A DNA stretch of 49,115 nt from a virus. Lineage: Duplodnaviria > Caudoviricetes. The stretch's first letter is position 1. The number at the start of each line of letters is the position of its first letter. Positions 12,734 to 49,115 of this stretch are shown here, piece by piece. Position numbers and translations under genes: made by a program. The stretch is taken from the IMG/VR virus record IMGVR_UViG_3300032330_000578, positions 1 through 49,115 of that record; one strand, 5' to 3'. The notes below the pieces were generated by a model. It was not told the DNA's origin, did not search any database, and worked only from the letters and a program-made list of their open reading frames with translations.

Positions 12734-12740
12734 GTAATTT

Positions 12741-15920: not shown

Positions 15921-15950
15921 TAGACTAATCCCACAGAGTGGACGGGTTAA

Positions 15951-17108
15951 ATGTTACAATTTGCGCAGTTTATTACAGAATCGCTTGAGACAGAAAAACT
16001 AACTCACTTAGAGCACGCAGAAGACCATCCTATCAATGCAGGTAAGGCTGGCTTTAATCATGCTGTTCAAACTCTTGAAGCCGTACACAATAAACTATCT
16101 GGCAAGAAGTCAGAAGCCACTTTGACAACCAAGTATGATGGTTCTCCGTCCATAGTATTTGGACATCATCCAGAGAATGGAAAGTTCTTTGTAGCATCTA
16201 AGTCCGCATTCAATAAGAACCCTAAAATCAACTATACTCCTAAAGACATTGAAAAAAATCATGGTCATGCTCCCGGTTTAGTTGATAAATTGAAGACTGC
16301 GCTCAAGCATCTTCCAAAGGTTGCTCCTGGTCATGGCGTCTACCAAGGCGATTTAATGTACACCAAGGATGATGTTAAGGAACATGGAGGTTCCTATCAT
16401 TTTACCCCAAATACTATTACATATTCCTCTAAGAAAGATTCTGAGGAAGGTAAGAAGATTGGTAAGGCTAAGATTGGTGTCGTAGTTCACACCAAGTATG
16501 AAGGTAAAAACTTTGAAGATATGAAGGCAAAGTTTGCTCCTAAGTTGGGCGGGTTTGCAGAACACAAAGATGTTCATATCATGGACCCTGAAACAAACCA
16601 TGAAAAGGCTCACTATACTGCTGAGCAAAAAGACAAGTTTAACTCGCATATTGAAAAGGCTAAGGCACTTGAGGCTAAACATGACTACACTCATTTAGAG
16701 GGTCATCATGAGCATCTGAAGACCTATATCAACCAGACTGTTCGCACTGGTGATACACCTACCGTTGAAGGTTTAAAGGCTCATGTTACTGCATCCCATA
16801 AAAGGGCTGCTGAGAAAGTAAAGACACAAGCCGCAAAAGATAAAATTACTGACAAGATGAATAAGCATCTAGCGCATATTGATGCTAATGCTAAGGAGTT
16901 TAAAACAACTCTTGCAATTCATCATCACTTACAAGCCGCAAAAGACCAACTGGTTAATGCATTATCATCTCATAGTACCTATGGTCATAGCATCAAAGGT
17001 AAAGCAGCAAAACCAGAAGGGTTTGTTGCCGTTATAGATAATAAGCCAACTAAGTTGGTTGACAGAGCAGAGTTCAGTAGAGAAAACTTTCTTGCGAGAC
17101 CACGATGA
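15951..17108 (+). CDS. Conserved T4-like protein upstream of the cytidyltransferase gene (DUF6267-like)
   Basis: HLEH.ED, TTKYDGSP, YQGD, PEGFV and KLVDR.EFS motifs; capsid-targeting-like N-terminus MLQFAQFITE. Confidence 0.75.
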   Translation: MLQFAQFITESLETEKLTHLEHAEDHPINAGKAGFNHAVQTLEAVHNKLSGKKSEATLTTKYDGSPSIVFGHHPENGKFFVASKSAFNKNPKINYTPKDIEKNHGHAPGLVDKLKTALKHLPKVAPGHGVYQGDLMYTKDDVKEHGGSYHFTPNTITYSSKKDSEEGKKIGKAKIGVVVHTKYEGKNFEDMKAKFAPKLGGFAEHKDVHIMDPETNHEKAHYTAEQKDKFNSHIEKAKALEAKHDYTHLEGHHEHLKTYINQTVRTGDTPTVEGLKAHVTASHKRAAEKVKTQAAKDKITDKMNKHLAHIDANAKEFKTTLAIHHHLQAAKDQLVNALSSHSTYGHSIKGKAAKPEGFVAVIDNKPTKLVDRAEFSRENFLARPR

Positions 17109-18988
17109 AACACGCAGTCTTTACATTTGGTAGATTTAATCCTCCAACAGAAGCAGGACACGGCAAACTAATAAATGCCGTTAAATCTCACGCTGAAGCA
17201 GTTGGCGGTGACCACTTTATCTTCCCATCCCACTCTCAGGATGCAAAAAAGAATCCTTTGTCGCATGAAGACAAGGTTTCTGCTATGCATAAGATTTTCC
17301 CCAAAACAAACATCGTTAGCCATCCTGAAGTAAAGACTGCTATTCATGCAATGAAGCATCTTGAAAAGAAAGGATACACTCACGCTACGATGGTTGTTGG
17401 GTCTGACCGTGTTCCTGAGTTTAAGTCTTTGCTTGGCAAGTACAATGGCAAAGAGTACAATTTTAAGAAAATTCACGTTAAGTCTGCTGGTAATCGTGAC
17501 CCAGATGCAGAAGGAGCAGAAGGCATGTCTGCCTCCAAACTTCGCGGTTTGGTGTCAGCAGGAAAACGCGATGAATTTATTAGCCACTACTCTAACAAAA
17601 AAGTTGGTGCTGAAATCCACGATAAGGTAAAGAAAGCAATGAATGAAAAAGCACCAGCACCAATTGGAATCTTTTTATTTGGTGGTCCTGGCAGCGGTAA
17701 GGATTATGTCCTCAAGAACATTTTCTCGCGGTTTGACCTAATTGAAGTACAAGCCGACCAGTTGCTACAGGGTTATGCCGGCATTCTACTAGAAGATAAC
17801 ACAAATATTGTTATTAACTGCTCAGCAGAAAATTCTGAACAAATTGAAACTATCAAGTCTATGCTAGAGGGTTATGAGTTTGACCATGTTTATGTTTCGG
17901 TGACAAATAAAGTCAGCCGTGAACGCAATCAAGCCCGAGCAAATCCACTACGGGAAGATGTTCGTATTAGCAAGATGCTCAAAGCCGAAAGACTTGCTAA
18001 GGCTCTTCCAGAAACATTTACCTTTAACAACTCATTAAATTTAGCCGAATCTAGTGAGATGGAACAGGTATTTTTTGCATCGCAGATTCAAAAATTGCTA
18101 GAGCGTATAGTAGGAATGGGATTGCAAATTCAAGAAACTCCCAGTCCAAAAAACTTTGCTGAGATAAGAGAAGCATTAGGAGAAAGTAATGTTAAAGTTT
18201 CTAAAAAAAATATGGCACTGGCTAACAGGGAAGAAGGAGACTGTGCCTGCAGTGGAGGTGCCTCCGGTAGCCCCTGTGATTGTGGAGGCTCCTGCGGTTG
18301 CGCCGAGTGTGCAGGAACCAGTGAAGCCATCAAAGAAGAAGCCAGCACAGTCAAAGTCCTCAACAGCCTCAAAAGCAAAATCAAAGCCAAAAAAGGTGTA
18401 GGACCAACAAACTATGACGGTAGACTTGGAATCAACATTGGATTGATTTCAGCCCCTACCGTTGTAGGTTCACCTACATCTACTTATGAATCTATACAGT
18501 ATCATCTCAAGAACAACATTTCCTTTACCAAGAACATCTATCGTCCTGGTTCAGATAAGTTTTTTGAGATGATTGACCATGCCCGTCAACTGTATCTTGA
18601 AGGCAAGTATCAGCCTGAAGATGAGTATGAACTTGAAGTCCTAGAAAGCAACATTGGTGAAATAGCCATGTATAAGGGCAAGAAAGTCATACTTGATTTT
18701 CCATTTGAAGTACTTGCTGAAGAAGGTTCAGACCCGACCAAGGGTCATGGAATCGGCAAACCATTCCGCAAGAATGGTGGCGGCGCAGTCTATGTCAAAA
18801 GCGGTGATGGCGTCAAACTGGTTAACTTTAGCCAGTCGGGCATGACCAAGAAGTATAATGACCCGGGTCGTTTGAAGAGTTTTATGGCAAGACATCATTG
18901 CTTGACCAATAAGGACAAAACATCTGCGTCCTACTGGGCTTGCCGTTGGCCAAGATACTTCAGTTCTGGTGGTCAACAGTGGTGGTAA
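17105..18988 (+). CDS. Cytidyltransferase-like / P-loop / C-terminal conserved domain fusion
   Basis: FGRFNPPT..GH, VVGSDRV, SASK; GGPGSGKD Walker A; C-terminal SF.ARH.C...YWACRWP. Confidence 0.8.
   Translation: MKHAVFTFGRFNPPTEAGHGKLINAVKSHAEAVGGDHFIFPSHSQDAKKNPLSHEDKVSAMHKIFPKTNIVSHPEVKTAIHAMKHLEKKGYTHATMVVGSDRVPEFKSLLGKYNGKEYNFKKIHVKSAGNRDPDAEGAEGMSASKLRGLVSAGKRDEFISHYSNKKVGAEIHDKVKKAMNEKAPAPIGIFLFGGPGSGKDYVLKNIFSRFDLIEVQADQLLQGYAGILLEDNTNIVINCSAENSEQIETIKSMLEGYEFDHVYVSVTNKVSRERNQARANPLREDVRISKMLKAERLAKALPETFTFNNSLNLAESSEMEQVFFASQIQKLLERIVGMGLQIQETPSPKNFAEIREALGESNVKVSKKNMALANREEGDCACSGGASGSPCDCGGSCGCAECAGTSEAIKEEASTVKVLNSLKSKIKAKKGVGPTNYDGRLGINIGLISAPTVVGSPTSTYESIQYHLKNNISFTKNIYRPGSDKFFEMIDHARQLYLEGKYQPEDEYELEVLESNIGEIAMYKGKKVILDFPFEVLAEEGSDPTKGHGIGKPFRKNGGGAVYVKSGDGVKLVNFSQSGMTKKYNDPGRLKSFMARHHCLTNKDKTSASYWACRWPRYFSSGGQQWW
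18189..18401 (+). CDS. Nested small Pro/Lys-rich protein in the +1 frame
   Basis: AGGAGA Shine-Dalgarno, amphipathic start MLKFLKKIWHWLTG and a Pro/Val then Lys-rich tail. Confidence 0.55.
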   Translation: MLKFLKKIWHWLTGKKETVPAVEVPPVAPVIVEAPAVAPSVQEPVKPSKKKPAQSKSSTASKAKSKPKKV

Positions 18989-19259: not shown

Positions 19260-21533
19260 ATGGCATCAGCATCGGTACTACAGGCTTGGGAAAGAGCATT
19301 TAAGAGTGGCTCTAAATCCCTACAGCAAAAACTCAGAGCAGCCCATGGCAACAAACCTGAGTTCAAGAAGTTTTTAAAAGACCAAGGTCTTGAAACTGAA
19401 ACCAGTGTAAAGCAAGTGTCTAAGTCTCAGGTTGACAAGGTCAAGCAGAAAGCCCGTGAAAAACTAGCCGCAAAGGCATATGGTGCCACCAAGGGAACCC
19501 GTATGGGTGCTGCTGATGGTTCAGGTGAAACGCTCCGTGACACCATTGCACCACTTTCTCCTGAGCAACATGCTGCTGTTAAGACAGCAGAAAGAACTGC
19601 TAAAGCCGCTGCTAAACCAGCCGCCAAGCCTAAGAAAGAAAAGAAGTCAAAGGCTCCAAAACCAGAAGAATCTCGCCTAGACATGATTAAGCGTCTAGCA
19701 TCAAGAAAGAAGATTAACAATCCTCCTGTATCTGCTAAGCAGTTACGCACGATTGCGGCAGTTGGTGGTCAAGAACATGACCATGGCGGATTTGATGACC
19801 TCTCTGGTACTGGCTATGAACACTTAGGTGGTCGTCACAGCATGGATGAGATGAATAAAGAAATGCCTTTATCACGCGAACAACTCGATAACATGGCAAA
19901 GCAAAAGTCCGCAGAGTACGCAAAACTTTATGATAAGGTTTCGCCAGAAATGCGAAAAAAATTAAAACTTCCAGCAAAACTTCCAGAAGAAGTCAAAGAT
20001 AAAGTTAAGGCTAAAACACCTGCATCTTCGCCTCTACATGTCACACTGGACCAAGCATATGCAAAAGGTCGGTTTGGTCGTGCACCAAGAGGTAGCAAGA
20101 CCCTAAAGAATATGTCTGATATTAAACTTGCAAATAACTTGACAAGAGAAGAAACTGAATTTAAAGTTGGCGATAAAGTTTCGATACATTCACCAGATGA
20201 TTGGGATTGGCATGAGCGTAAGGGTGAATTAGTATCAACATCTAATGATGGTCATGTTGTAAAACTAAATGATGGCGGAATGCTATCAGTTGCAAAGCAT
20301 CAGATAAAGAAAATTGACGAAGAGATGAACAACCGTATCACTAAGATTCACGTTCGCGGTCAAAACGTAATTGTTCATAAATATGATACCGAGGCTAATG
20401 GTACATATAAGGAAGTAAAGCATCACTCTAGCGCAACAGCGGCACAAACATATGCTCGCCAATTACATAAAGCCAGAGGTCGTAATGCTAAACTTGTGAT
20501 TAATGAAAACATTATTGACAGATTTGTTGCTAATAAGATTGCTGCGTATCATAGCAATAAAGTTAAAGGTTCTGTAGAGCAATCTGATGCAGCCCGTGAA
20601 GCCGTCACTAAGAAAATGGAACCAATCAAGAAAAAGATTGAGCGCATTAAGGCTAGAGCATCCTACAAAGATAAGTCTCACGCAAGACATGATGAGACCA
20701 AACTAGACCTTAAGCATGCTAATGATGAACACGCAGCACTTAAAGCCGAGCGCGCAAAACACTATGATGCTTTTAAAAATGCATCAGCAGAAAGAGATTC
20801 TAATATTGCCTCAGACATGAAGACCTATGACAAGTATGGTCTTGTTGGTCTAGGTCTAAAACGTTTAAAGCAAAACATTCAAAAGGAAGAGACAATGAAC
20901 GAAGGTATCCTAAGCACAATTCTAGGTAAGAAGAAAGAACTAGCCAAGCCAACCCCAAAGAAGACTGGATACCAAGGTCTTCCTGCTGAGTGGAGCCAAG
21001 AGAAGCGCGGCAATGAATATGACGCCAACAAGTACATGGCTAAACTTAAGAATGAAGAATACAAAGAACCTTTTGAAGGCGGCAAAGAACCTTCCAAGAA
21101 TAAAGGTATTGTTGTCGGCAAGAGCCGTCCTGAAGGAATGTCACGTGTTGCTCACCTAGCCCGTCAAGCCCTAAAGAAGAAGGCTGCAATGAAGGAAGGT
21201 TACATGAAGGCAAACATGCCTGAAACAGAAGATGACAATGGTGCATCTGATATGGCAGAATATGAGCGTCAAGCAAAGAAGAAAGGCGTTCGTGCATATG
21301 ACAAGAAAGGCAACCTAGTTGGCAACTATCGTAGCATGGCAGATGCTAAGAAGTTTAAGCCTAATCATACATACAAGGAAGAAGCCAAACCATCTTCAGT
21401 CTATGCGCTAAATCCTGGTATGAAAGAAAAACTATGGGCAAAGCACATGGCAGATAAGAAAGCCTCTTCACAAGCACCTGCTGATAGAGCAGCCCGTATG
21501 AAAGATAGAATTGCAGCAGCAAAGAGCAAGTAA
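19260..21533 (+). CDS. Large charged low-complexity protein, probable capsid-internal polyprotein
   Basis: Lys/Glu-rich segments separated by (L/I/M)-x-E(E) sites resembling gp21 protease sites. Confidence 0.6.
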   Translation: MASASVLQAWERAFKSGSKSLQQKLRAAHGNKPEFKKFLKDQGLETETSVKQVSKSQVDKVKQKAREKLAAKAYGATKGTRMGAADGSGETLRDTIAPLSPEQHAAVKTAERTAKAAAKPAAKPKKEKKSKAPKPEESRLDMIKRLASRKKINNPPVSAKQLRTIAAVGGQEHDHGGFDDLSGTGYEHLGGRHSMDEMNKEMPLSREQLDNMAKQKSAEYAKLYDKVSPEMRKKLKLPAKLPEEVKDKVKAKTPASSPLHVTLDQAYAKGRFGRAPRGSKTLKNMSDIKLANNLTREETEFKVGDKVSIHSPDDWDWHERKGELVSTSNDGHVVKLNDGGMLSVAKHQIKKIDEEMNNRITKIHVRGQNVIVHKYDTEANGTYKEVKHHSSATAAQTYARQLHKARGRNAKLVINENIIDRFVANKIAAYHSNKVKGSVEQSDAAREAVTKKMEPIKKKIERIKARASYKDKSHARHDETKLDLKHANDEHAALKAERAKHYDAFKNASAERDSNIASDMKTYDKYGLVGLGLKRLKQNIQKEETMNEGILSTILGKKKELAKPTPKKTGYQGLPAEWSQEKRGNEYDANKYMAKLKNEEYKEPFEGGKEPSKNKGIVVGKSRPEGMSRVAHLARQALKKKAAMKEGYMKANMPETEDDNGASDMAEYERQAKKKGVRAYDKKGNLVGNYRSMADAKKFKPNHTYKEEAKPSSVYALNPGMKEKLWAKHMADKKASSQAPADRAARMKDRIAAAKSK

Positions 21534-23269
21534 TGGAACTGAAGCACGCTACTGACCTTGAGATTGCTAAGCATTTAGCATCTCATGCTGCAACTCCAAC
21601 AGGAAAGTCTAGAGAACAGAACAGAGTTGGTAAACTATTGGCTGATAGGAACGCAAGAATGAAAAAAGCACATGTTGTACAACCAATGGGTCTTGTATAT
21701 AAAGAAGACCGTGATGAAAACATGAAGCAAGAGATTGCTGACCGATTAGCCAATACTCCAGCAGAGCGTGCAGAAAGAAAGCATCGTGTACAAGTTGCTA
21801 TTAACAGAGCAAAACAACTTAGAGAAGGTAATAAAATGAAGACATTTTCCAAATTGCAGGAAGCAATTACTCCAGCATCACCAGCACTAGTTAGTGCAAT
21901 GAACAGTCTGTTGGCTGATAATTTTGCCTTCTATCTAAAGGCTCATAACTATCACTGGAACATTGAAGGTGCTGACTTTGCTCAGTATCATGAATTCCTT
22001 GGTAACTTGTATGAAGATGCTCATGGTGCAGTCGATAACATTGCAGAACGCATCCGCACACTAAAAGCCTATGCTCTTGGTACAATGGAAAACTTTATGA
22101 GCGAAACTTCTATTACAGAAGATTCTTCAGTTCCTGGTCCAATGCAGATGCTACAGAACATCACTATGGATAATGAAACTCTAATTGAATCCCTAACAAG
22201 AGCATACAAAGCCGCTGAAGCAGATGGCAGAGTTGGTCTTGCTAATTTCCTACAAGACCGTATTGACGCTCATGAAAAGCATGGCTGGATGCTACGCTCT
22301 CTTGTCAAAGGTAATCTATCAGAATCTGTAGACCTTAGTGAAGTAAATTCACGTCACAGTTTTGTTGCTGCTCAGGATAGACTAACTCCAAGAGCAAAAA
22401 ACGTTAAGCAAGCCCTAAGCACCAAAAGACGCGATGTAGCGGCAACTAACAAATATGGCAAAGTCATTGGCAAAATTGCTGGTATGAAGCCAAAGGAAGT
22501 TGTTGCCAATCTTAAGGATATGGGCGAAGAAGTCGAACTTGATGAAGATGCGCTAAAGGCAAGAGAGCAATGGATGAAAGCAAAGGGTGTATCAACTGGA
22601 AACCCTAAAGCAGACAGAGCCAGAAAAGTTAAAAGACTAATGAAATCCTTTCCTATGAAGAAAGAAGAAGTCGAGCAGATTCAAGAAGTTGGTCCGCAAA
22701 AGAAACTAAAGAGAGTATTTAACAAACTCCGTGATGCCCGTGCAGGGCAACGTTACAAGGATTCTGGTATGCCAGTTCCTGAGCGTGAACCTGGACACAA
22801 AAACACAGTAGACCACAACAAGGCAATTGGTCGCGCTCTTCGCAAGATGGGTGAAGAAACTGAACAGGTTGCTGAATCTGTTAAAGTTGGTCCTAAAAAT
22901 TACCACAAATCTACTGATACAGTTTGGCATGCTGTTCAACATAATGGCAAAGAAATTGGCACAATTGGTACAAATTCTGCGCAAAATGTAGAAAAGCACG
23001 GTAAGTGGGGATTTGAAGATTCACGTGGGTATGGGCGTAGACATGGTGAGCCTGAAATGAATTCAAAAGAAGAGGCTCTTGATGCTCTTGTAAATCGTCA
23101 CAAAGAATATACAAAACAGGTTAATGAAGTACTAAAGCCATCGATGGGCGCATCAGCATACATTCATGATTTTGTTCACTCAAAAAATGCTAAGTTTGCT
23201 GGCAAGTCTAAAGCCGAACGTACCAAGATGGCTCTTGGTGCATACTATAGTGCTAAGAAAGGCAAATAA
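21533..23269 (+). CDS. Dps/ferritin-like domain within a probable capsid-internal protein
   Basis: KAHNYHWNIEG, HEFLG.LYE, DNIAERIR and EKHGWMLRS; possible internal start at 21836 (MKTFSKLQE). Confidence 0.85.
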   Translation: MELKHATDLEIAKHLASHAATPTGKSREQNRVGKLLADRNARMKKAHVVQPMGLVYKEDRDENMKQEIADRLANTPAERAERKHRVQVAINRAKQLREGNKMKTFSKLQEAITPASPALVSAMNSLLADNFAFYLKAHNYHWNIEGADFAQYHEFLGNLYEDAHGAVDNIAERIRTLKAYALGTMENFMSETSITEDSSVPGPMQMLQNITMDNETLIESLTRAYKAAEADGRVGLANFLQDRIDAHEKHGWMLRSLVKGNLSESVDLSEVNSRHSFVAAQDRLTPRAKNVKQALSTKRRDVAATNKYGKVIGKIAGMKPKEVVANLKDMGEEVELDEDALKAREQWMKAKGVSTGNPKADRARKVKRLMKSFPMKKEEVEQIQEVGPQKKLKRVFNKLRDARAGQRYKDSGMPVPEREPGHKNTVDHNKAIGRALRKMGEETEQVAESVKVGPKNYHKSTDTVWHAVQHNGKEIGTIGTNSAQNVEKHGKWGFEDSRGYGRRHGEPEMNSKEEALDALVNRHKEYTKQVNEVLKPSMGASAYIHDFVHSKNAKFAGKSKAERTKMALGAYYSAKKGK

Positions 23270-34325: not shown

Positions 34326-36230
34326 ATGGCAACTAGACTACCCAGCATTTATCAGGATTTCATTCACATTTCTCGCTATGCGCGTTTTAATGACACACTT
34401 GGTCGTCGCGAGACTTGGGATGAAACCGTAGACCGTTATATTTCATTTTTTCAAAAACGTACTGATAACAACAAGAAGGTGCCTTGGGAAGAAATTCGCA
34501 GTGCTATTCTAAATCTTGAAGTTATGCCATCTATGCGCTGCTTGATGACTGCTGGTCCTGCTCTTGAGAAAGACCAAGTGGCTGGATACAACTGCTCATA
34601 TGTTGTTGTTGATAGCCCAAAGTCATTTGACGAAATTATGTACGTTTTGATGTGCGGTACTGGCGTTGGTTTCAGTATTGAATCCCGTTACACTAACAAG
34701 TTGCCAGAGGTTCCAGATGAACTTCATCCAACAGACACTACAATCGTTTTTGCGGATTCCAAGATTGGTTGGGCAACTGGTTTTAGAGAATTCATTTCTC
34801 TGTTATATTCTGGTAAGATTCCTAAGTGGGATATGTCAAAGGTTCGTGCGGCTGGCGAAAGACTCAAAACATTCGGCGGCAGAGCATCAGGACCAGAACC
34901 GTTAGTTGACTTGCTCAACTTCACTCTTAACATTTTTCAAAAGGCTCATGGTCGTAAGTTGACGACATTGGAATGTCATGACATCGTTTGTAAGATTGCT
35001 GATATTGTGGTTTGCGGTGGTGTTCGTCGCAGTGCGCTTATTTCTCTTTCTGACCTTAATGATGACCATATTCGTCATGCTAAATCTGGTCAATGGTGGT
35101 TGGCTGATGGTCAACGCGCTTTGGCAAACAATAGTGCGGTATATGAAGATAAGCCTAGCATGGATACGTTCATGCAAGAATGGGTAGCACTTTATATGTC
35201 AAAGTCTGGTGAGCGCGGTATCTTCTCGCGTCAGGCATCTAAGGCAATCGCAGCAAAACATGGTCGTCGCGACCCTAATCATGAGTTTGGAACTAATCCT
35301 TGCTCTGAGATTATTCTTCGTCCATATGAATTTTGCAATCTCTCTGAGGTTGTTGTTCGCGCTGAAGATACGGTTGAAGACCTAAAGCGCAAGTGTCGTA
35401 TTGCTACTATCATTGGTACACTTCAGTCTACCATGACCGACTTCCGTTACATCAACAAGAAGTGGAAAAAGAACTGCGATGAAGAGCGTTTGCTTGGCGT
35501 TTCACTGACTGGTATTATGGACCATCCGCTTTTAAACGGTAGCATTCCATTAACGCTTCAACACGGTAATCTACCTCGCGCACTACAAGAAATGCGTAAG
35601 GAATGCGTTGATACCAATAAGAAGTTTGCCGACATTCTTGGTATTGAAGCATCTGCTGCTATCACTTGCGTGAAGCCATCAGGTACAGTTAGCCAATTAG
35701 TTGACTCTGCTTCAGGCATTCACCCACGCTACAGTCAGTATTATATCCGTCGTGTTCGTGCCGACAAGAAAGACCCTCTTGCTGATTTTATGATTAAAAA
35801 AGGTTATGTTGCCGAAGAAGACTTCTATGGTAAGAGCAACTGGGTGTTCTCTTTCCCGATGAAGGCTCCTGAAGGCGCAGTACTTACCAAGGATGTAACT
35901 GCCATCAAGCAACTTGAACTATGGCAGATTTACCAAGACCACTGGTGTGAGCATAAGCCATCTATCACCGTATATGTTGGTGATGATGAGTGGATGGAAG
36001 TGGGCGCATGGGTTTATAAGAACATGGCTTCGCTATCTGGTGTATCTTTCCTACCACGCGATACTGGTTCATATCGTCAGGCTCCGTATGAGGGAATTGA
36101 TGAGGCTAAGTATAAGGAACTTCTTGCTACTCAGAACGTTGAACTTAACTGGACTGAGTTTATGGAAGCGACAGATACTACAGAAAGTGCTCAGACATTA
36201 GCATGCGCAGCAGGTGGTTGTGAAATCTAA
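34326..36230 (+). CDS. nrdJ: Class II (B12-dependent) ribonucleotide reductase
   Basis: PSMR, YNCS, GGVRRSA, TNPCSEI, KPSGTVSQL and C-terminal C..GGCE. Confidence 0.93.
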   Translation: MATRLPSIYQDFIHISRYARFNDTLGRRETWDETVDRYISFFQKRTDNNKKVPWEEIRSAILNLEVMPSMRCLMTAGPALEKDQVAGYNCSYVVVDSPKSFDEIMYVLMCGTGVGFSIESRYTNKLPEVPDELHPTDTTIVFADSKIGWATGFREFISLLYSGKIPKWDMSKVRAAGERLKTFGGRASGPEPLVDLLNFTLNIFQKAHGRKLTTLECHDIVCKIADIVVCGGVRRSALISLSDLNDDHIRHAKSGQWWLADGQRALANNSAVYEDKPSMDTFMQEWVALYMSKSGERGIFSRQASKAIAAKHGRRDPNHEFGTNPCSEIILRPYEFCNLSEVVVRAEDTVEDLKRKCRIATIIGTLQSTMTDFRYINKKWKKNCDEERLLGVSLTGIMDHPLLNGSIPLTLQHGNLPRALQEMRKECVDTNKKFADILGIEASAAITCVKPSGTVSQLVDSASGIHPRYSQYYIRRVRADKKDPLADFMIKKGYVAEEDFYGKSNWVFSFPMKAPEGAVLTKDVTAIKQLELWQIYQDHWCEHKPSITVYVGDDEWMEVGAWVYKNMASLSGVSFLPRDTGSYRQAPYEGIDEAKYKELLATQNVELNWTEFMEATDTTESAQTLACAAGGCEI

Positions 36231-37815
36231 GTTAAGAAATTTTCCTTCTGTTAACTACCCAAGTTTGTATGAGTGCCCTGAAAGACGGGCATTCATGCAA
36301 TCTCAATTTAACAAGTATGGCATTACCAAAACAAACTGTTATTTGACTGAACGGTTTGCTAAACTAAAGTCCAATTTAGTAATATACAGCCACTACATTC
36401 CTATTAACACTGGGGAACCAGAAGCAACAGACATTCCAAGTCAGCCAGGAATTAACATATCTTTTCTCAACCTTATCAAGCAATGGTACGATAAAAATGA
36501 GGAAGAGTATGCAATATTCTGCGATGATGACATTAACCTATCCAGTATAGATTATTGGTCATTCACGTGGGATGAGTTTATGGCAAACTTGCCTGAAGAC
36601 TGGGAATGTATACAATTAATTCGAATTAACGATATCACTCAACATGATATCAATCTGACATTGCATAATGGATTCAAACGGCATGCTTTAGAAATCAGAC
36701 CAAGAGAGTGGGATGATTGGGGCACCACCTTTATGATTACTCGTGGATATGCAAAGAAACTTATTGACAGACACTATATCAATGAGTACACTTACAACTT
36801 TGATATCCCATGCCCAGTTTGGGGATGCTTGTATCCAATCTCAGAACATTTCTTTTTTAGAAATCTAGGAAAGGTCTATAACTTTCCGTTGTTCCAAGAG
36901 GAATCTGAGATACCCTCTACATTCAGAGAAAGTTGGATTAAAGCAAATCAAGGTAAACTTGATGACATCTATGAACATGACCGTATCCATAACACATCTA
37001 GAAAGATTTATCTAGACCTATGGCGCGCAGTTGGTTTGAGTACTCCAATACAGAAGATGATGCATACATCAAGTCCTCTTTATGGATTTAATTCAGTCAA
37101 CACAATTACGATGTCTGAGTCTGTAAAGCGTTATGAATACATCAACTCTTGTTTAGATGATATTGGTATACTGAATCGCGCAGTTCATATAAATGATAGA
37201 TTTGAACGAATCAAGGATAATATCCTATGGTATTGTTCAGACTCTAGTATTTGTAATGCTGGAATGGGAGTATCTGTTTCACATCTTGCGTCAATCAGAT
37301 ATTGGTATGACCAGACTACTGAACCTTATGCGTTGTTTACTGAAGATGATGTTGACTTAAGTGTTGCTAAGTTTTGGAAATTTAGATTCCAAGATGTTAT
37401 TAACAGAATGCCTAATGATTGGGAAGCAATTCAACTTGTTCGTATCAGAAATGAACCCGACTATGGCGGATTGCAACTTAGAGAAAGGCAATGGAATGAT
37501 TGGGGTTGCGCGGCATTCGTTGTTAAACGCGAGTATGCTAAAAAGATACTAGATAGAAATATGGATGGCAACAAGTATGTTCTTGCGCTAGGCAACTATC
37601 AACCAATAGTAGAAAACATTATGTTTCTTGGGCTTGGTAAAGTGTATAACTTACCGCTGTTTGCAGAGCATATATATGATAGCGTTGATTCGGATTTGTG
37701 GGACATTGAACGTGGCGTAAAAAACTTTCACCGCGATTCAAGCGAATACTATACCAATCTTTGGAAGACTAATACATTAACTCTTGATGAAATTATGGGT
37801 ATTAAACATGACTAA
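36214..37815 (+). CDS. Tandem two-domain glycosyltransferase (GT25-like)
   Basis: WY...YA.F.(E/D)DD...W.F...P.DWE.IQL.RI...DWG...GKVYN.PLF occurs twice. Confidence 0.7.
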   Translation: MVVKSKLRNFPSVNYPSLYECPERRAFMQSQFNKYGITKTNCYLTERFAKLKSNLVIYSHYIPINTGEPEATDIPSQPGINISFLNLIKQWYDKNEEEYAIFCDDDINLSSIDYWSFTWDEFMANLPEDWECIQLIRINDITQHDINLTLHNGFKRHALEIRPREWDDWGTTFMITRGYAKKLIDRHYINEYTYNFDIPCPVWGCLYPISEHFFFRNLGKVYNFPLFQEESEIPSTFRESWIKANQGKLDDIYEHDRIHNTSRKIYLDLWRAVGLSTPIQKMMHTSSPLYGFNSVNTITMSESVKRYEYINSCLDDIGILNRAVHINDRFERIKDNILWYCSDSSICNAGMGVSVSHLASIRYWYDQTTEPYALFTEDDVDLSVAKFWKFRFQDVINRMPNDWEAIQLVRIRNEPDYGGLQLRERQWNDWGCAAFVVKREYAKKILDRNMDGNKYVLALGNYQPIVENIMFLGLGKVYNLPLFAEHIYDSVDSDLWDIERGVKNFHRDSSEYYTNLWKTNTLTLDEIMGIKHD

Positions 37816-38788
37816 TTTTGTAACAAAAGTGTTAAATAGCGGCGGCAGCATTACGCCACTAATCATTCCAGCATCTGATAAGACTAAGGGCACTGGACTA
37901 TTTAATCCATCCATCTATAATGATAATGGCAAATTGCTACTCAACCTTAGACATTGCCAGTATACCATTTATCACGCAGAGAAAGGTAAGTTTGAGCACC
38001 ACTATGGTCCACTTGTATACCTTAATCCTGAAAATGATATTACACTAACAACTACCAATTACTTCTGTGAGATTGGAGATGATATGCTCATCTCCAAATA
38101 TACTGCTATTGATACTAGCAAACTTGATGTCACCCCTATCTGGGAGTTTGTTGGTCTTGAAGATTGTCGCGTTGTCCGTTGGGATAACAGATTGTATGTC
38201 TCTGGTGTGCGCCGTGATACAACACCTAATGGTCAAGGTAGAATGGAATTGTCTGAGATTGTACAAGAAGGCGATACAGTAAAGGAGGCGTCTCGCTTCC
38301 GTATTCCAGCGCCAACAATGGATACTTCATATTGCGAAAAGAATTGGATGCCTATTACAGACATGCCATATCATTATGTAAAGTGGAGCAATCCTACTGA
38401 AGTTGTACGCGCAGACCCTGTAACCAAAACTTGCAGCACGGTGTTCTTAGGAACATCCTATGTACAGAAGCCATATGACTATCGTGGCGGTTCACAAGTA
38501 ATTCCGTTTGGTGATTATAGAATCTGCCTAGCCCATACAGTTAATCTTTTTAACAGTAAAGCAGGCAGAAAGAATGCTACATACCGACATGTCTTTATCG
38601 TATGGGATAAGAACTGGAACGTAGTAAAGTATACTGAACCATTTGATTTTATGGGCGGTGAAATTGAATTTGGTTGTGGCATGACTCAATATGGTGATGA
38701 TATTCTTATCACCTTTGGGTTCCAAGATAATGCCGCCTATCTACTTAAGATGCCAGTAAAGTTTATTGAGGATTACATCAATGCTTGA
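37808..38788 (+). CDS. Beta-propeller glycosidase/phosphorylase-like protein (GH130/GH43-like)
   Basis: FNPSI, GLEDCR, EKNWMP, RGGS, EF.CG and FGFQD. Confidence 0.7.
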   Translation: MTNFVTKVLNSGGSITPLIIPASDKTKGTGLFNPSIYNDNGKLLLNLRHCQYTIYHAEKGKFEHHYGPLVYLNPENDITLTTTNYFCEIGDDMLISKYTAIDTSKLDVTPIWEFVGLEDCRVVRWDNRLYVSGVRRDTTPNGQGRMELSEIVQEGDTVKEASRFRIPAPTMDTSYCEKNWMPITDMPYHYVKWSNPTEVVRADPVTKTCSTVFLGTSYVQKPYDYRGGSQVIPFGDYRICLAHTVNLFNSKAGRKNATYRHVFIVWDKNWNVVKYTEPFDFMGGEIEFGCGMTQYGDDILITFGFQDNAAYLLKMPVKFIEDYINA

Positions 38789-40823
38789 TTTGATTAATGC
38801 TATTCGCGAATATTCTATTGACCCCGAAAATGCCGATAAGAATTATACGTTAGGTAGAATTTATGAAGACATAGGTCAGACTGCTGCTGCCATATCATAT
38901 CTTCTTCGTGCTGCTGAAAGAACAGAAGATGATGACCTAGCCTATGAATGTCTTATTCGTGTAGGTACTTGCTTTGACCGCCAAGATAATCGTCATCATA
39001 CAGTTCGTGGCGTATACAAGCATGCTATCATGCATAAGCCTGATAGACCAGAAGCATACTACTTTTTATCCAAGTTTGACAACTACTATCAGAATCATCA
39101 AGATGGTTACTACTATGCGCGTACTGGATTAGCAGTAGCCAATCCTAATCCTACGCCATTGCGCGGTGATGTTGGTTATCCTGGCATATATGGATTAATG
39201 TTAGAGAAAGCAGTTGCCGGTTGGTTGTGGGGTAAGCGGGAAGAATGCGCTGCTCTTCTTGATGACATTGTAACAAATCATTGGACTAATTTGACTCCTT
39301 GGTACAAGGATGCAGTCAATAATTGCTACAACAATTACAAACTAACACGTCCTAAAAATGGTTTGCGTATAGTTGATTGTTTTACCTATTACGATGAAAC
39401 TTGTCGTGAAATGTTAGAGTTGCGTTACAATGTGCTAAAGAATTATGTTGACAAATTTGTAGTTTGCGAGGCTAACAGAACGCAAACTGGCGAGTTGATT
39501 GAACGTAAGTTGCGCGCAACTCTACAAGAACTAAATCTGCCTCTTGATAAATTTGTCATCGTTGACGTTGACATTCCTGATGATGATACATTAATTGTGC
39601 ATGAGATTGATAAACTCAATTCGTATCAGAATGCTAATATCGAATCATACAAGGCTAGAGCGAGAGAGCGTCTACAGAAGAATGGATTGCACAAAGTTGT
39701 AGACCAGTTTAGCAACAATACCTACTTTATTGTAAGCGATTGCGATGAAATTGTAAATCCTAATAATCTTGAGCATATTATTGATATTGTTGAAAAAAAC
39801 AAAGACATGGTTGTAAAGATTCCATTAATTCACCTTGAAGGTCGCGCCAATCTCCGAGTACTCCGCACCGACAGTTGGACTCCAAAACCTTGGGATGGCG
39901 CAATGTTCATCTGTAAGAAGGAGCATCTACTACATGCTGAAGTAATTCAGATTCGTTCAAACATCTTTAATCCATATCAGATTGGATACATTAATGATAA
40001 AGGCAAGCGCGTTGAGGATTTGGGTTGGCATTTTTCTTGGATGGGTGATGCCTATCGTAGAAAGAAGAAACTTAATGGATTTGTACATCGTAATGAGAAA
40101 CTAGATTTTCTACAGACTGGAAGTTACGACAGTCAGGCTACGCTTGAGCGTATGGAAATTGAACCAGTTGCTGGCGCAATTTCAATCAGCTGTGAAGCAA
40201 ATACGATTCTTGCGCCATTTCCTGAATCGCAACTCCCTTCTGCTATCCTAGAGAATCCAAAACTTTACGCATTCTTTATAACTGGCAGCAAAGCAGATAA
40301 AGACTTAATCTTGAAGATGCTTGAAAGTGAGTATGAGAAGGCTTGCTCTGCTGATACTGATATCTTTAAGCATCTCCCAGTGCTTCGCAAATTTGCAAAA
40401 GAATGCAGTCATATTACAGAAATGGGCGTTCGCACGGGACAATCTACTCGCGCTTTGTTAGTGGAACCAGTAACGCTTAGGTCATACGACTTGTATCTAA
40501 ATGATGAAGTAGGCAAACTGTTTGCATTGGCGCAGGCTGCGGATAAGGATGTTAAGTACATTGAGGGCGATACATTACAAATTGAAATAGATGAAACTGA
40601 TTTGCTCTTTATTGATACTGAGCATACCTATACTCAGTTAGCAGCTGAATTAGAACTTCATCATCACAAGGCTAGAAAGTATATTGCTTTCCACGATACT
40701 GATAAGCCATTTGCAGAAGAATTGCTTCCTGCTATCATTGAATTTATGATTAGACATCCTGAGTGGGAATTCTGCCACCACAGCAAAGAATGTCATGGTT
40801 TCACCGTAATTAAGAGAAGATAA
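38781..40823 (+). CDS. TPR + GT17-like + methyltransferase fusion
   Basis: N-terminal TPRs; VDCF.Y...LELR...SDCDEI...GWHFSW (GT17-like); EMGVR.G.ST...FIDTEH...FHD (Methyltransf_24-like). Confidence 0.75.
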   Translation: MLDLINAIREYSIDPENADKNYTLGRIYEDIGQTAAAISYLLRAAERTEDDDLAYECLIRVGTCFDRQDNRHHTVRGVYKHAIMHKPDRPEAYYFLSKFDNYYQNHQDGYYYARTGLAVANPNPTPLRGDVGYPGIYGLMLEKAVAGWLWGKREECAALLDDIVTNHWTNLTPWYKDAVNNCYNNYKLTRPKNGLRIVDCFTYYDETCREMLELRYNVLKNYVDKFVVCEANRTQTGELIERKLRATLQELNLPLDKFVIVDVDIPDDDTLIVHEIDKLNSYQNANIESYKARARERLQKNGLHKVVDQFSNNTYFIVSDCDEIVNPNNLEHIIDIVEKNKDMVVKIPLIHLEGRANLRVLRTDSWTPKPWDGAMFICKKEHLLHAEVIQIRSNIFNPYQIGYINDKGKRVEDLGWHFSWMGDAYRRKKKLNGFVHRNEKLDFLQTGSYDSQATLERMEIEPVAGAISISCEANTILAPFPESQLPSAILENPKLYAFFITGSKADKDLILKMLESEYEKACSADTDIFKHLPVLRKFAKECSHITEMGVRTGQSTRALLVEPVTLRSYDLYLNDEVGKLFALAQAADKDVKYIEGDTLQIEIDETDLLFIDTEHTYTQLAAELELHHHKARKYIAFHDTDKPFAEELLPAIIEFMIRHPEWEFCHHSKECHGFTVIKRR

Positions 40824-41479
40824 TGGCATACATTAACGCAAATATCCCGCCCATAGAGTGCTATGTGCGGTCAAACTTCCTACAGAATCGACCTGAGTGG
40901 GATGATGAAAAGGATACATATCTTCCAGTATTGGTATTTGGCGTGGCATCTATACCACACCGAGTGCCATTATTTCATTTCATTATGGAGGATGAGGGAC
41001 TTTGGTTCCGTATGCCAATTCACGCATTCTGTCACAAAACCCCAGCCAAACAATCTGAACTTACCAATCTAGTTTTATGGGATTGTTTCAGTTATCATGT
41101 TGGTGTTACGCAGTATGACTTTTTAATCAACAAGCGTATGCGGTACATTGACCGTAACAAGAACTGGCAAGATGGAACTTACTTGTTCACTCTTGATTGG
41201 GCTCAGGAGGATAAGAATGTCGCGGATTTGGGATTTAGTGAAGTCCCTGGTCAGCACAAATGTGGGCACGTCATCAAACTCGACAACGGTAATTTTGCCA
41301 TCCAGCCAAACAACCGCATCAGAGCATTTGAACCCTCCTTTGTTACAAAACCAGGACAAAATGTTATTGAGCGTAAGATTGGCACCCACATGTGGTCTGT
41401 TGAAAATACAACAAAGTGGGTCTTGTCGGACGATGACAGGTATGACTATACAGTGGAGGAAAAGACTAATGGCAACTGA
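40823..41479 (+). CDS. Conserved phage hypothetical protein
   Basis: LWDCFS...YLFTLDW...HKC.H...QPNNR motif set. Confidence 0.7.
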   Translation: MAYINANIPPIECYVRSNFLQNRPEWDDEKDTYLPVLVFGVASIPHRVPLFHFIMEDEGLWFRMPIHAFCHKTPAKQSELTNLVLWDCFSYHVGVTQYDFLINKRMRYIDRNKNWQDGTYLFTLDWAQEDKNVADLGFSEVPGQHKCGHVIKLDNGNFAIQPNNRIRAFEPSFVTKPGQNVIERKIGTHMWSVENTTKWVLSDDDRYDYTVEEKTNGN

Positions 41480-41786
41480 GTACGATTTTGGATTTAGTTT
41501 TGAAGACAGTGAACCAACAACTCCTGTAGTTTCTAACAATACTGACCTTAAAGTTTTACAGGAAAAAGTAGACTCCCTTTTGACATCGCAGACTAGTTTG
41601 CTTGACACGCAGAACCAGTTGCTGGAAGAACGGTATAAAGCCAAGTTGAAGGAAGTAGAAGGCTTGATTCTACCGCTTCTATATAATCTGATGAAGAACC
41701 CCGATAAGGCTTACATCAAGTGGGAGAATCGGGCACCTGTCATACAAAAACAGATTGACAAGATTACGGCAATTACTAGGAGTTAA
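41469..41786 (+). CDS. Hypothetical protein
   Basis: MATEYDFGFSF start; LPLL.NL.KNPDK.YI.W.NR. Confidence 0.7.
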   Translation: MATEYDFGFSFEDSEPTTPVVSNNTDLKVLQEKVDSLLTSQTSLLDTQNQLLEERYKAKLKEVEGLILPLLYNLMKNPDKAYIKWENRAPVIQKQIDKITAITRS

Positions 41787-41788
41787 CA

Positions 41789-41995
41789 ATGTCAGACAAA
41801 ATCACATGTGACAACTGTGGTTCTGTCTTCGCTTTACTATATGATGAAGATGAGGTAAGTTATACCCCATCACACTGCCCTTTCTGCGGAGACTACTACG
41901 ACAACGCATCAGAAGAATTAGATTTCAACAATGATGACGACAATTTCAAAGACATGATGGAAAGCGATGATGTCCTGTTTGGGGATGAAGATTGA
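41789..41995 (+). CDS. Small zinc-ribbon protein
   Basis: CDNC...CPFCG followed by an acidic tail. Confidence 0.75.
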   Translation: MSDKITCDNCGSVFALLYDEDEVSYTPSHCPFCGDYYDNASEELDFNNDDDNFKDMMESDDVLFGDED

Positions 41996-42543
41996 TTGTT
42001 GTTGGCATCGACTACTCGCTGACTTGTCCCTGTGTTTGTGTCGCCAAAGACCAAACATTCAGTAATAGTTACTTTTACTATTTGACAGACAGGAAATCAG
42101 TGATAGGCAAGTTTCATAACATCCTTGGTGAACCTCACTCTGAGTACTTGACGGACCAAGAACGGTATGAGAACATTGCAATTTGGGTGCTTGAAATTTT
42201 ATCCAATTTCAATCGCGATGAAATTGTTATCATGATTGAAGACTATTCCTTTGGTTCAAAGGGCAGAGTGTTTAACCTTGCTGAGAATTGCGGCATTCTA
42301 AAGTACTTGTTATATAAGCACAACTACATATTCCATACTGTTGCTCCTACCGTTATCAAAAAGTTTGCCACGGGCAAGGGTAATGCAACAAAAGAAAAGA
42401 TGTATGAGGCTTTTGTTAGTGATACAATGATTGACTTACATAACATCTTGTTGCCAAACGTCAAACTAAACTCCCCTATCACGGACATTGTTGACGCTTG
42501 GTACTTGGCAAGATACATGAAACATAGTTTGGAGAAAGTATGA
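41992..42543 (+). CDS. RuvC-like (RNase H fold) nuclease/resolvase
   Basis: GIDYS, IEDY, P..IKKFATGKGNA.K and DIVDA. Confidence 0.8.
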   Translation: MIVVGIDYSLTCPCVCVAKDQTFSNSYFYYLTDRKSVIGKFHNILGEPHSEYLTDQERYENIAIWVLEILSNFNRDEIVIMIEDYSFGSKGRVFNLAENCGILKYLLYKHNYIFHTVAPTVIKKFATGKGNATKEKMYEAFVSDTMIDLHNILLPNVKLNSPITDIVDAWYLARYMKHSLEKV

Positions 42544-43526
42544 AAAAGGTTTTGGTTACTGGCGCAGCTGGATTTTTAGGTTCACACCTTTGCGAGAGAT
42601 TGCTTGCTGAAGGTTGTCGCGTATATGCTTTTGATAACTTGTACACTGGTTCTCTAGACAACATTAGTCACCTAATGACTAGTGATATGTTTAGTTTTCA
42701 TCAGATGGATGTTACATATACTAACTTTGTTCATATTGCTCATAACCGCACTGGTGGCAATCTAAGTGAAATTTACAATCTTGCCTGCCCAGCATCTCCG
42801 GTTCATTATCAGAAAGACCCGATTTATACTTGGAAGACAAGTGTTATTGGCGCAATGAATATTCTTGAACTAGCCGAGTTTGTTAAAAAGTTTGATGGCA
42901 TCTCACCACGTGTTGTGCAAGCATCTACGTCTGAAGTGTATGGCGACCCTCATGTTCACCCGCAACCTGAAAGTTATTTTGGTAATGTTAATCCAATTGG
43001 AATTAGGTCTTGTTATGATGAAGGCAAACGCGCAGCAGAATCCCTTTTCTTTGACTTTAAACGAGTTCATGATACTAACACTGGCGTGTTCCGTATTTTT
43101 AATACTTATGGTCCACGTATGGCTACGGATGATGGTCGTGTAGTCAGTAACTTTATTGTTGCTGGCATTCGCAAAGAACCTCTTGTCATCCAAGGAACCG
43201 GACAGCAGAGTCGCAGTTTCTGTTACGTTGATGACTTGATTGAAGGCATTCTACGATTCGCAAGAAGTGACCTTGCTGGTCCTGTAAACATTGGCAACCC
43301 AACTGAGTTTACTATTCAGCAATTAGCGGATATGATAGTAGACCGTTACGGAATTGAGACATGTTATGTTCCTGCTGTACAAGATGACCCAAAACAGCGT
43401 AAGCCTGATATCACTACAGCACAAACTCGACTGAAGTGGAATCCTACTGTAGAACTACAAGAAGGTCTAGAAAAGACCGCAGCATACTTTGAGGAGAAAC
43501 TAAAATGTCGGAGCGAGACACTGTAG
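42540..43526 (+). CDS. UDP-glucuronate decarboxylase (UDP-xylose synthase)
   Basis: GAAGFLGSHL, LACPASP, STSEVYGDP, YDEGKR, RIFNTYGP and DDP.QR.PDI. Confidence 0.9.
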   Translation: MKKVLVTGAAGFLGSHLCERLLAEGCRVYAFDNLYTGSLDNISHLMTSDMFSFHQMDVTYTNFVHIAHNRTGGNLSEIYNLACPASPVHYQKDPIYTWKTSVIGAMNILELAEFVKKFDGISPRVVQASTSEVYGDPHVHPQPESYFGNVNPIGIRSCYDEGKRAAESLFFDFKRVHDTNTGVFRIFNTYGPRMATDDGRVVSNFIVAGIRKEPLVIQGTGQQSRSFCYVDDLIEGILRFARSDLAGPVNIGNPTEFTIQQLADMIVDRYGIETCYVPAVQDDPKQRKPDITTAQTRLKWNPTVELQEGLEKTAAYFEEKLKCRSETL

Positions 43527-47850: not shown

Positions 47851-48044
47851 GTCTAGTTAAGTTGGATTGTTTCACTGATAGTGAATGGACTGAATATGTA
47901 AAGGAAGTTGTACCAGTCAAGGCTGGCAAGACTTTTGATGTTTGTTCAGATTGTACAATTTGCTTTCAGCGAAAGATGCGCGAACAAGGACGATGTAACT
48001 TTCCCATGAAAAACCTGAAGAAAGTTGTTGAGTATCGTATCTGA
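47847..48044 (+). CDS. Small Cys-rich hypothetical protein
   Basis: CF...W..Y...CSDCT..FQ..M...GRC. Confidence 0.6.
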   Translation: MSLVKLDCFTDSEWTEYVKEVVPVKAGKTFDVCSDCTICFQRKMREQGRCNFPMKNLKKVVEYRI

Positions 48045-48068
48045 TTGATTTGATGACGAAAAAAAAGT

Positions 48069-48097
48069 TTTACTTTTCACGCTAACTAGGGTATCAT
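48069..48097 (+). promoter_or_regulatory. Sigma70 promoter of the RNA/tRNA operon
   Basis: Upstream A-tract; TTTACT-17 bp-TATCAT; overlapped by the inverted repeat TTTTCACG...CGTGAAAA. Confidence 0.55.
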
Positions 48098-48282
48098 TCT
48101 TATCTAACGTGAAAAACGGGATATATATAGATATCCCACCACGAGTCCAAGTTGGCTTGTGTATGCTCTTTACAAAACAGATTCTCAAAAGGTGTCCCAC
48201 TACCTGCCCCACCTACTAAAAACACTTGGGGCTGGATTGCGCACGCAGTCGGCTAAACATTCGTTTGGCTTAAACGTGGATA

Positions 48283-48363
48283 TATCTCTGATGAGCCAGT
48301 GAGACTCTGGCGAAACATATGGTTGTTGATGTATTTTTGTTATGCTCCAGCCAGTGTAAGATA
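48283..48363 (+). ncRNA. Type I hammerhead ribozyme
   Basis: Stem I TATCT/AGATA; core CTGATGA (48288-48294); stem II GCCAG/CTGGC; GAAA (48312-48315); stem III ACAT-a-TGGTTG/CAGCCA-GTGT; GUA cleavage triplet ending at 48358. Confidence 0.8.
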
Positions 48364-48364
48364 A

Positions 48365-48624
48365 CAGCAAACATGACCTTGCGGTGTAATTTTGCTGATG
48401 CCTATAGGCAAGAGGATGAATGATACATTGCTGAATGCTTAGTGCACTATGCTTTCAGGTATCAAACATAAACCGCATCATTGCGCGAGGACAGGCGCAT
48501 TATAAATGTAGACCGCAGTTCCCGATACTACAGAAAAAATCGGCAGTTATTTTCCGTGCCGCGAGGATTGCGCGCCTTACAAATTCAATCCATAGTTTGC
48601 TGGCACTATTGACAACAACCAGCA
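48365..48624 (+). ncRNA. Putative structured RNA between the ribozyme and tRNA-Asn
   Basis: Several helices and possible H-type pseudoknots; no credible ORF. Confidence 0.45.
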
Positions 48625-48631
48625 CTTATTT

Positions 48632-48706
48632 TGGCGTGTAGCACAATGGTAGTGCATCTGACTGTTAATCAGAGGGTTGCTGGTTCGAACCCAGCCATGC
48701 CAGCCA
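48632..48706 (+). tRNA. tRNA-Asn (GTT)
   Basis: Acceptor TGGCGTG/CATGCCA, anticodon loop CTGTTAA, TTCGAA T-loop and encoded CCA. Confidence 0.95.
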
Positions 48707-48717
48707 ATTACGTTCAC

Positions 48718-48966
48718 AGCAATCCCTACAACGGGTTGCTACAGTACGGGAACTGACCCGCACCTAATACGGTGGCGTTGTGGTGAGCAACGATAGCCTG
48801 AATCAACAGGGTGGACGCTTTATATGTCCACGTGCCCATGCGTAGCCTTATGCTGACCTAGGAAGCAGAGTGATTAAGGAAATACATGGGCTTTTATTTT
48901 CGCAACAGCAAGACAGGGGTCGCGCCCAGTGCCTAGTGTCAAGTGCTTGTCGGTTGATATGTTGCG
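48718..48966 (+). ncRNA. Putative structured RNA(s) between tRNA-Asn and tRNA-Leu
   Basis: Dense run of hairpins and two long-range closed domains separated by U-rich linkers. Confidence 0.45.
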
Positions 48967-48974
48967 TTTTATTT

Positions 48975-49058
48975 GCGCGAGTGGTGGAATGGTATACACG
49001 ATGGTCTTAGAAGCCATTGCCTAACAGCATGAGAGTTCGAGTCTCTCCTCGCGCACCA
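48975..49058 (+). tRNA. tRNA-Leu (TAG)
   Basis: GCGCGAG/CTCGCGC acceptor, loop CTTAGAA, long variable arm and CCA. Confidence 0.95.
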
Positions 49059-49063
49059 ATTTT

Positions 49064-49115
49064 GCTCCTGTCGTCTAGCGGTTAGGACATCACCCTTTCA
49101 CGGTGGTGACACGGG
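49064..49115 (+). tRNA. tRNA-Glu (TTC), truncated by the window end
   Basis: GCTCCTG start, GTCTAGCGGTTAGGAC D-arm and anticodon loop CTTTCAC. Confidence 0.9.

Follow-up and report, generated by a model that had tools for sequence, protein, structure and literature searches.

A gene-free stretch ahead of a phage tRNA cluster

The window analysed here is the whole 49,115-nucleotide (nt) stretch of IMG/VR record IMGVR_UViG_3300032330_000578, a contig of 49 kb from a T4-like aquatic phage that has not been cultured and carries DNA polymerase, UvsX, helicase, primase, thymidylate synthase and RuvC-like genes. Near its end, a gene-free stretch lies between the last open reading frame (ORF), which ends at 48044, and a tRNA-Asn that starts at 48632. 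Within it we identified a type I hammerhead ribozyme motif (48283..48363) and a predicted structured RNA that starts at its predicted cleavage site, here named RNA A (48359..48477; plus strand, as for the other parts of this stretch). The tRNA cluster beyond comprises tRNA-Asn(GTT) at 48632..48706, tRNA-Leu(TAG) at 48975..49058 and a third tRNA truncated by the contig end (49064..49115), a partial RF00005 match whose anticodon TTC, read from the sequence, indicates Glu.

The window polymerase shares at most 52% identity with those of cultured Synechococcus phages, and the close relatives of the phage come from aquatic and freshwater metagenome runs; the listed holders include no RNA data set, which speaks neither for nor against expression. 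Locus searches with single proteins found no relatives, and an alignment search returned relatives only 34–56% identical. BLAST against annotated phages gave tRNA matches or short fragments only; a cultured carrier is therefore not known. A coding explanation of the ribozyme region was rejected, as insertions of 2 and 5 bases in the close relative X3 shift the frames of the small overlapping ORFs at 48159-48302 (plus strand) and 48200-48370 (minus strand).

The window contains a type I hammerhead motif

An initial annotation had placed a complete hammerhead core and three stems of type I topology at this site, and sequence reading, a descriptor scan and folding located each element in its place. 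The core agrees with the consensus defined in the methods section of PMC3088659 (C3 U4 G5 A6 N7 G8 A9, G12 A13 A14 A15, U16 and H17): C3–A9 is CTGATGA at 48288-94, GAAA stands at 48312-15, and T48357 and A48358 serve as U16.1 and H17. Stem I pairs TATCT (48283-87) with AGATA (48359-63) through five Watson–Crick pairs. Stem II pairs GCCAG (48295-99) with CTGGC (48307-11), including G10.1–C11.1, and carries a 7-nt loop. Stem III consists of an inner part, ACAT (48315-18) with GTGT (48354-57), followed by a 1-base bulge and an outer part, TGGTTG (48320-25) with CAGCCA (48348-53). No mispairs adjoin the core, and stem I is the open stem, which defines the topology as type I. The predicted cut falls after the triplet GUA, between A48358 and A48359.

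A scan of the two strands for hammerheads of all three types (I, II and III) yielded this single site in the whole window. In trinucleotide-preserving shuffles, any match occurred in 1 of 100 and a match with equally long stems in 0 of 100; together with the conservation in relatives described below, this ruled out a chance motif. Folding 48275-48370 to minimum energy gives the hammerhead structure, at an unremarkable energy (z 0.22). The pairing of GGCTGGA with TCCAGCC, named at the outset as a potential competitor, does not dominate (pair probability ≤0.03) and was discarded; a different competing helix emerged upstream (see below).

Searching with hammerhead covariance models, as the initial annotation had suggested, gave no gathering-level match in Rfam and only a partial match to Hammerhead_3 (RF00008; 24.5 bits, E 0.016, cut-off 48.5). 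The long stem III suits this model poorly. Compact relatives of the ribozyme also remain under the threshold (31.3 versus 34 for RF00163). No HDV (hepatitis delta virus)-type Rfam match was found in 47900-49115, and the site has a hammerhead core instead of the HDV-like fold of theta ribozymes. Judged from its sequence and from the comparison with relatives, this is a genuine type I hammerhead motif, and it is predicted to self-cleave after A48358 during transcription.

The ribozyme is conserved in a family of phage loci

We compared 16 distinct ribozymes that head RNA A, the window included. The core is kept in all of them, and all pairs are standard at stem I positions 1–5, stem II positions 1–4 and stem III positions 15.2–15.4. 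Three pair types occur at 15.3 and four at 15.4, and stems II and III covary, providing the covariation in related phages that had been proposed as a check. The window has A-U in place of the family G-C at stem I pair 4. Both GUC and GUA occur as cleavage triplets, and the distance from the cut to the RNA A core motif is 12–13 nt in the relatives and 17 nt in the window. The insert between A15.1 and U16.1 in stem III varies from 10 to 102 nt. Three loci (L221, L238 and L186) have near-identical hammerheads with structured-looking stem III inserts of ~50–90 nt, longer than that of the window, as though cargo RNA could be accommodated in stem III.

The changes listed for X3 in 48283-48306 number four: two in stem II, with pairing kept, and two in loop II. 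None of them touches the core or the 5′ side of stem I. X3 also has an inserted C and an inserted G on opposite sides of stem III, and in X2 and X4 a stem III U-G pair is replaced by C-G. All three close relatives (X2–X4) keep the block to about 48477, beyond which modules come and go.

A separate search by the window's stem II recovered 13 unrelated phage hammerheads, none of which (0/13) has a tRNA within 1.5 kb. Several of the unrelated hammerheads that share this stem (L004, L005, L008, L009, L011, L012 and L013) have a pseudoknot between loop II and the 3′ tail and are intergenic, just before a start codon.

RNA A is a predicted double-pseudoknot RNA

In the window, RNA A measures 119 nt, and its first base, A48359, is the base after the predicted cut; in other phages its length ranges from about 112 to 185 nt. 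The predicted structure opens with P1 (48365-71/48391-97, seven pairs in the window), whose loop holds two pairing elements. CCU forms pk1 with AGG (48377-79/48413-15), and the other element pairs with the extreme 3′ end to form pk2 (48380-85/48472-77, 6/6 pairs in the window). An optional hairpin between P1 and pk1 (48399-48410) is very variable in length across the family, and P3 is formed by 48416-18/48467-69 and 48422-26/48459-63.

A covariance model built from 14 relatives, with the window left out, found its best match in the window at 48362-48480, 3 nt past the cut (29.2 bits, E 2e-5; next match 13.5). As this score alone barely exceeds those of decoys, we base the assignment on the position at the cut, the seven-pair P1, the complete six-pair terminal pseudoknot and P3, which, with the hammerhead directly upstream, identify the window RNA at the sequence level as a divergent member of the family. 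In the family alignment, which was fitted to the nested part of the structure and has related rows, so that shuffle controls of 0/500 are not probabilities, 97.5% of pk2 cells are paired over 20 distinct rows and both sides have changed at four of the six pairs. These changes include L284, L285 and L294, loci found by the ribozyme pattern and not by the RNA motif. P3 and P4 covary as well. A rival local pairing for RNA A was rejected: it lacks covariation and is broken in L294.

With E values up to 10 allowed, Rfam gave no match to RNA A in the window, and none in 12 relative loci at E up to 0.5 and 0.3; BLAST gave none in annotated phages, and the pattern scan none in bacterial genomes. RNA A is a conserved, uncatalogued small phage RNA with a likely double pseudoknot.

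RNA A and the ribozyme occur together

Through a neighbouring protein family we fetched 160 loci, 45 of them with tRNAs. A type I hammerhead lies inside the tRNA cluster in three of the 160 (two distinct phages), and all three continue into the motifs of 48359-48477. Two patterns built on the RNA, without ribozyme information, were run on IMG/VR; a hammerhead stood directly upstream in 9/9 viral loci, representing four distinct ribozymes. A pattern for the 5′ motif returned 87 loci, 20 with a hammerhead. The same 20 score 60–120 bits with the RNA A model (14 of them built it), while the other 67, without a hammerhead, score ≤26.7 bits. Scanning GTDB genomes produced 49 pattern matches, none of them real and none (0/49) with a ribozyme. 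Conversely, of the 34 loci recovered by a pattern for the ribozyme alone, 22 carry RNA A and 12 lack it. In several of the 22, the unit is directly preceded by a promoter-like site of its own, and a protein gene comes after RNA A. In the window, as had been noted initially, the ribozyme lies just upstream of a structured RNA and ahead of the tRNAs, the first of which starts at 48632.

A proposed route to RNA A with a defined 5′ end

We consider it probable that the hammerhead cuts after A48358, makes the exact first base of RNA A with a 5′-hydroxyl (5′-OH) and probably shields the RNA from 5′-end-dependent decay. A candidate promoter of sigma-70/T4-early type (TTTACT-17-TATCAT) lies at 48069..48097, and a comparable site, TTTACA-17-TAGTAT, immediately precedes this ribozyme in relatives from a different clade. 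That the ribozyme lies downstream of the operon promoter is no more than plausible, because the site matches 9 of 12 consensus bases and promoter-like sites are no commoner than in shuffles (4 versus 4.7). Transcription would start near 48104, and the ribozyme would fold as 48363 emerges and then cut, setting the 5′ end of the structured RNA as originally suggested. The tRNA 5′ ends would still be made by host RNase P, the enzyme that makes tRNA 5′ ends. Cleavage of U-rich linkers, together with RNase P action on the following tRNA, would free the 3′ end of RNA A, with the linkers at 48547-53 and 48626-32 probably separating the modules. The 5′-OH would stabilize RNA A because RNase E and RNase G prefer 5′-monophosphate ends (background in the consulted part of PMC3014915). 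Such protection is likely but not certain, and the effect on RNase E is one we infer.

We favour, by analogy, a stable stand-alone RNA of the tRNA cluster with a role comparable to that of T4 RNAC and RNAD; most plausibly, its job is that of a decoy or protein-binding RNA. More tentatively, and with clearly lower probability, RNA A may be a new self-maturing class of phage RNA, a compact double pseudoknot with an invariant core found across aquatic T4-like phages, which needs the 5′-OH made by its own hammerhead to act in trans during infection, as a decoy for a host defence that targets RNA or as a ligand-binding or catalytic RNA.

Several observations weigh against cleavage yielding a protected RNA A. 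The cleavage prediction is built on sequence, folds and comparison. Stem I is short and A-U rich, with one G-C pair, and no loop II pseudoknot partner was seen by eye in the sequence, so the cleavage rate could be low. For RNA A, the window score exceeds that of the best motif-selected decoy by a narrow margin (29.2 versus 26.7 bits), pk1 is nearly invariant and is supported by consistency, covariation being uninformative there, and the own-versus-cross test of P1 is weak (-5.5 versus -4.2 kcal/mol). The sign of the stability effect is uncertain as well, since T4 polynucleotide kinase can phosphorylate 5′-OH ends and thereby speed decay (PMC3014915, same part). To these are added the 12 loci without RNA A and the folds of the upstream leader, each of which bears on an alternative.

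The 12 RNA A-less loci (of 34 matching the ribozyme pattern) appear to form one clade and lead into mRNA: 46–51 nt past the cut stands the small ORF that, in sister loci, follows RNA A. Their cut product opens with a hairpin made from the ribozyme's own stem I 3′ strand (nine distinct loci folded, three duplicates omitted). They show that the ribozyme can persist without RNA A, a result that speaks for a more general function in producing protected 5′ ends and against strict coupling. The hammerhead could accordingly be a general 5′-end insulator that gives non-coding RNA, pre-tRNA or mRNA a defined 5′-OH and a terminal hairpin, with RNA A as an optional passenger; hammerheads ahead of phage genes are described in the consulted part of PMC3088659. 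However, the RNA A-less loci share one downstream gene and look like a single clade, and their hairpin resembles a remnant of P1, so that they look like a deletion that left this remnant, as we infer. Moreover, wherever RNA A was found, in several different contexts, the ribozyme stands at a constant distance from it. We regard a general insulator as unlikely.

Nine of these loci (L272, L274, L277, L279, L282, L287, L291, L298 and L300) present a promoter, hammerhead, 5′ hairpin, 46–51-nt leader and small ORF (81 aa in L277), a unit that looks like a natural insulator-like cassette. In L277, the ORF after the small ORF resembles a small heat-shock protein when read by eye.

The predicted 5′ cleavage product includes a structured leader (48104..48282) that folds into five hairpins. 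In X3 it carries three compensatory, two pair-keeping and two pair-breaking changes, and two of the hairpins have compensatory changes; no distant homologue was found among the fetched loci. The leader may be an independent RNA or act as a switch for the ribozyme. A predicted helix between 48183-48200 and 48276-48295 can sequester the 5′ strand of stem I. When folding begins at the presumed transcript start, the stem I pair probability falls to 0.00-0.02, with the upstream helix formed instead, and with a limited pairing span the competing helix reaches 0.77 versus 0.02 for stem I. With a single G-C pair in stem I and no tertiary contact identified, the leader might hold stem I apart, making cutting slow, conditional or largely lost in this phage. 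Equilibrium folding, however, omits the tertiary energy of the ribozyme and folding during transcription. The changes listed in close relatives avoid the core, the competing helix would lose a pair through the X3 change at 48195, and other family members lack such a leader. We give a regulated or weakened ribozyme little probability.

The initial annotation viewed the ribozyme as a processor of the tRNA-operon leader, its cut starting pre-tRNA maturation in parallel to HDV-like theta ribozymes. It does head the cluster in the window, and in one of the three related loci with a hammerhead in the tRNA cluster it stands 2 nt after tRNA-Trp. The parallel did not hold up, however. Theta ribozymes cleave no more than 5 nt from the 3′ end of a tRNA (consulted part of PMC10879173), whereas the cut here lies 273 nt before tRNA-Asn. 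Among the 22 loci with ribozyme and RNA A, 10 have a downstream tRNA, at 120–379 nt from the cut and thus at least 120 nt away, while the flanks fetched for the other 12 contain none (two of these flanks are short). Furthermore, in the DNA fetched, 42 of the 45 related loci that have tRNAs lack a hammerhead close to those tRNAs. The cut keeps a fixed relation to the non-coding RNA downstream of it rather than to the tRNA operon, and a role in tRNA processing has very little probability. In L303, a weak twister-sister match (1535-1609, minus strand; 25.5 bits versus a cut-off of 34) lies in the same tRNA cluster as a hammerhead and RNA A.

The three compensatory changes in leader hairpins of one close relative speak for the upstream piece itself, a 255-nt structured leader RNA with a 2′,3′-cyclic phosphate end, as the useful product. 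Against this, the upstream context differs wholly between members (promoter, tRNA or other spacers) while the downstream RNA is constant, and the leader has no distant homologue among the loci fetched; we consider this reading very improbable.

Further modules and neighbouring genes

Two further units lie between RNA A and the tRNAs. Module B (48482..48543) is a hairpin and predicted H-type pseudoknot with an A-rich linker, and forms a separate, movable unit. Homologues occur in L020 (12918-12990, with no ribozyme ahead) and in L184/L273, with three different, still complementary second stems; the module is absent from X2, and no Rfam match to it was found. By sequence comparison, Module B moves independently of the ribozyme. 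Module C (48554..48625), a variable spacer or structured unit, is skipped in X2 and X4 and has no homologue among the fetched loci. The spacer after tRNA-Asn (48707-48833) is a run of hairpins that is likewise skipped in X2 and X4 and has a homologue in the tRNA region of L252/L303 (E 9e-10). A long-range pairing of nine bases is possible between 48516-24 in Module B and 48747-55.

Elsewhere in the window, many nucleotide-sugar epimerase, cytidyltransferase and glycosyltransferase genes stand beside the replication genes (11993-18988 and 36214-43526), a set that suggests glycosylation of DNA or the virion. A ferritin-like gene lies at 21533-23269.

Relation to known ribozymes and phage RNAs

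Type I hammerheads of phages and prophages (Rfam clan CL00010, RF00163/RF00008) are described in the consulted part of PMC3088659. The window ribozyme shares with them the core C3–A15, U16 and H17, the three stems, the intergenic position in a phage and the absence of core-adjacent mispairs. It differs from clan members in its scores below gathering level, in the loop II pseudoknot not being seen and in the stem III inserts of its family (10–102 nt). The contexts published there (Perreault et al. 2011) are protein genes and mRNA processing, and phage hammerheads were proposed to cut long transcripts; the window ribozyme instead heads a conserved non-coding RNA.

Theta ribozymes (Kienbeck et al. 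2024, PMC10879173, in the part consulted) are likewise self-cleaving RNAs of phage tRNA regions and were proposed as a stand-in for a host nuclease step. They are, however, a different class that cuts at the tRNA 3′ end, whereas the cut here falls at least 120 nt before a tRNA and at the start of another RNA. The word hammerhead does not occur in that part of the article.

T4 RNAC and RNAD (species 1 and 2) are similar to RNA A in size (139 and 119 nt) and in belonging to the tRNA cluster of a T4-like phage. Homology was rejected, as the RNA A model R1 found no match on either gene in L270, and no hammerhead is annotated ahead of either in NC_000866. GOLLD and ROOL are large, ornate structured non-coding RNAs associated with phages and with tRNA genes; both greatly exceed RNA A in size, and Rfam searches match it to neither. 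The roles of RNAC and RNAD are given as unknown in the consulted part of PMC3014915.

In the literature searched, which covers subscription papers thinly, no description of a unit of ribozyme and RNA A was found. The consulted main text of PMC10690425 mentions neither hammerheads nor ribozymes. Motif look-ups were negative in 11 supplement files of PMC3088659 and 6 of PMC10690425; files 1, 2 and 4 of the latter lay outside this search and may hold RNA A among the 10,006 candidates of that paper. We conclude that this is a hammerhead of a known class in a use not found in print, heading an uncatalogued, conserved and pseudoknotted phage RNA.

What bacterial and phage ribozymes are for is described as unresolved, and the reason for their abundance in bacteria and phages as an open question (PMC6765202 for both, PMC10085705 for the former; parts consulted). 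Here, a natural hammerhead has a fixed, testable predicted product, the 5′ end of a conserved RNA, and natural variants with and without RNA A, at the same promoter and gene, offer a ready comparison. RNA A also adds a pseudoknotted RNA to the old puzzle of the stable small RNAs in T4-type tRNA clusters.
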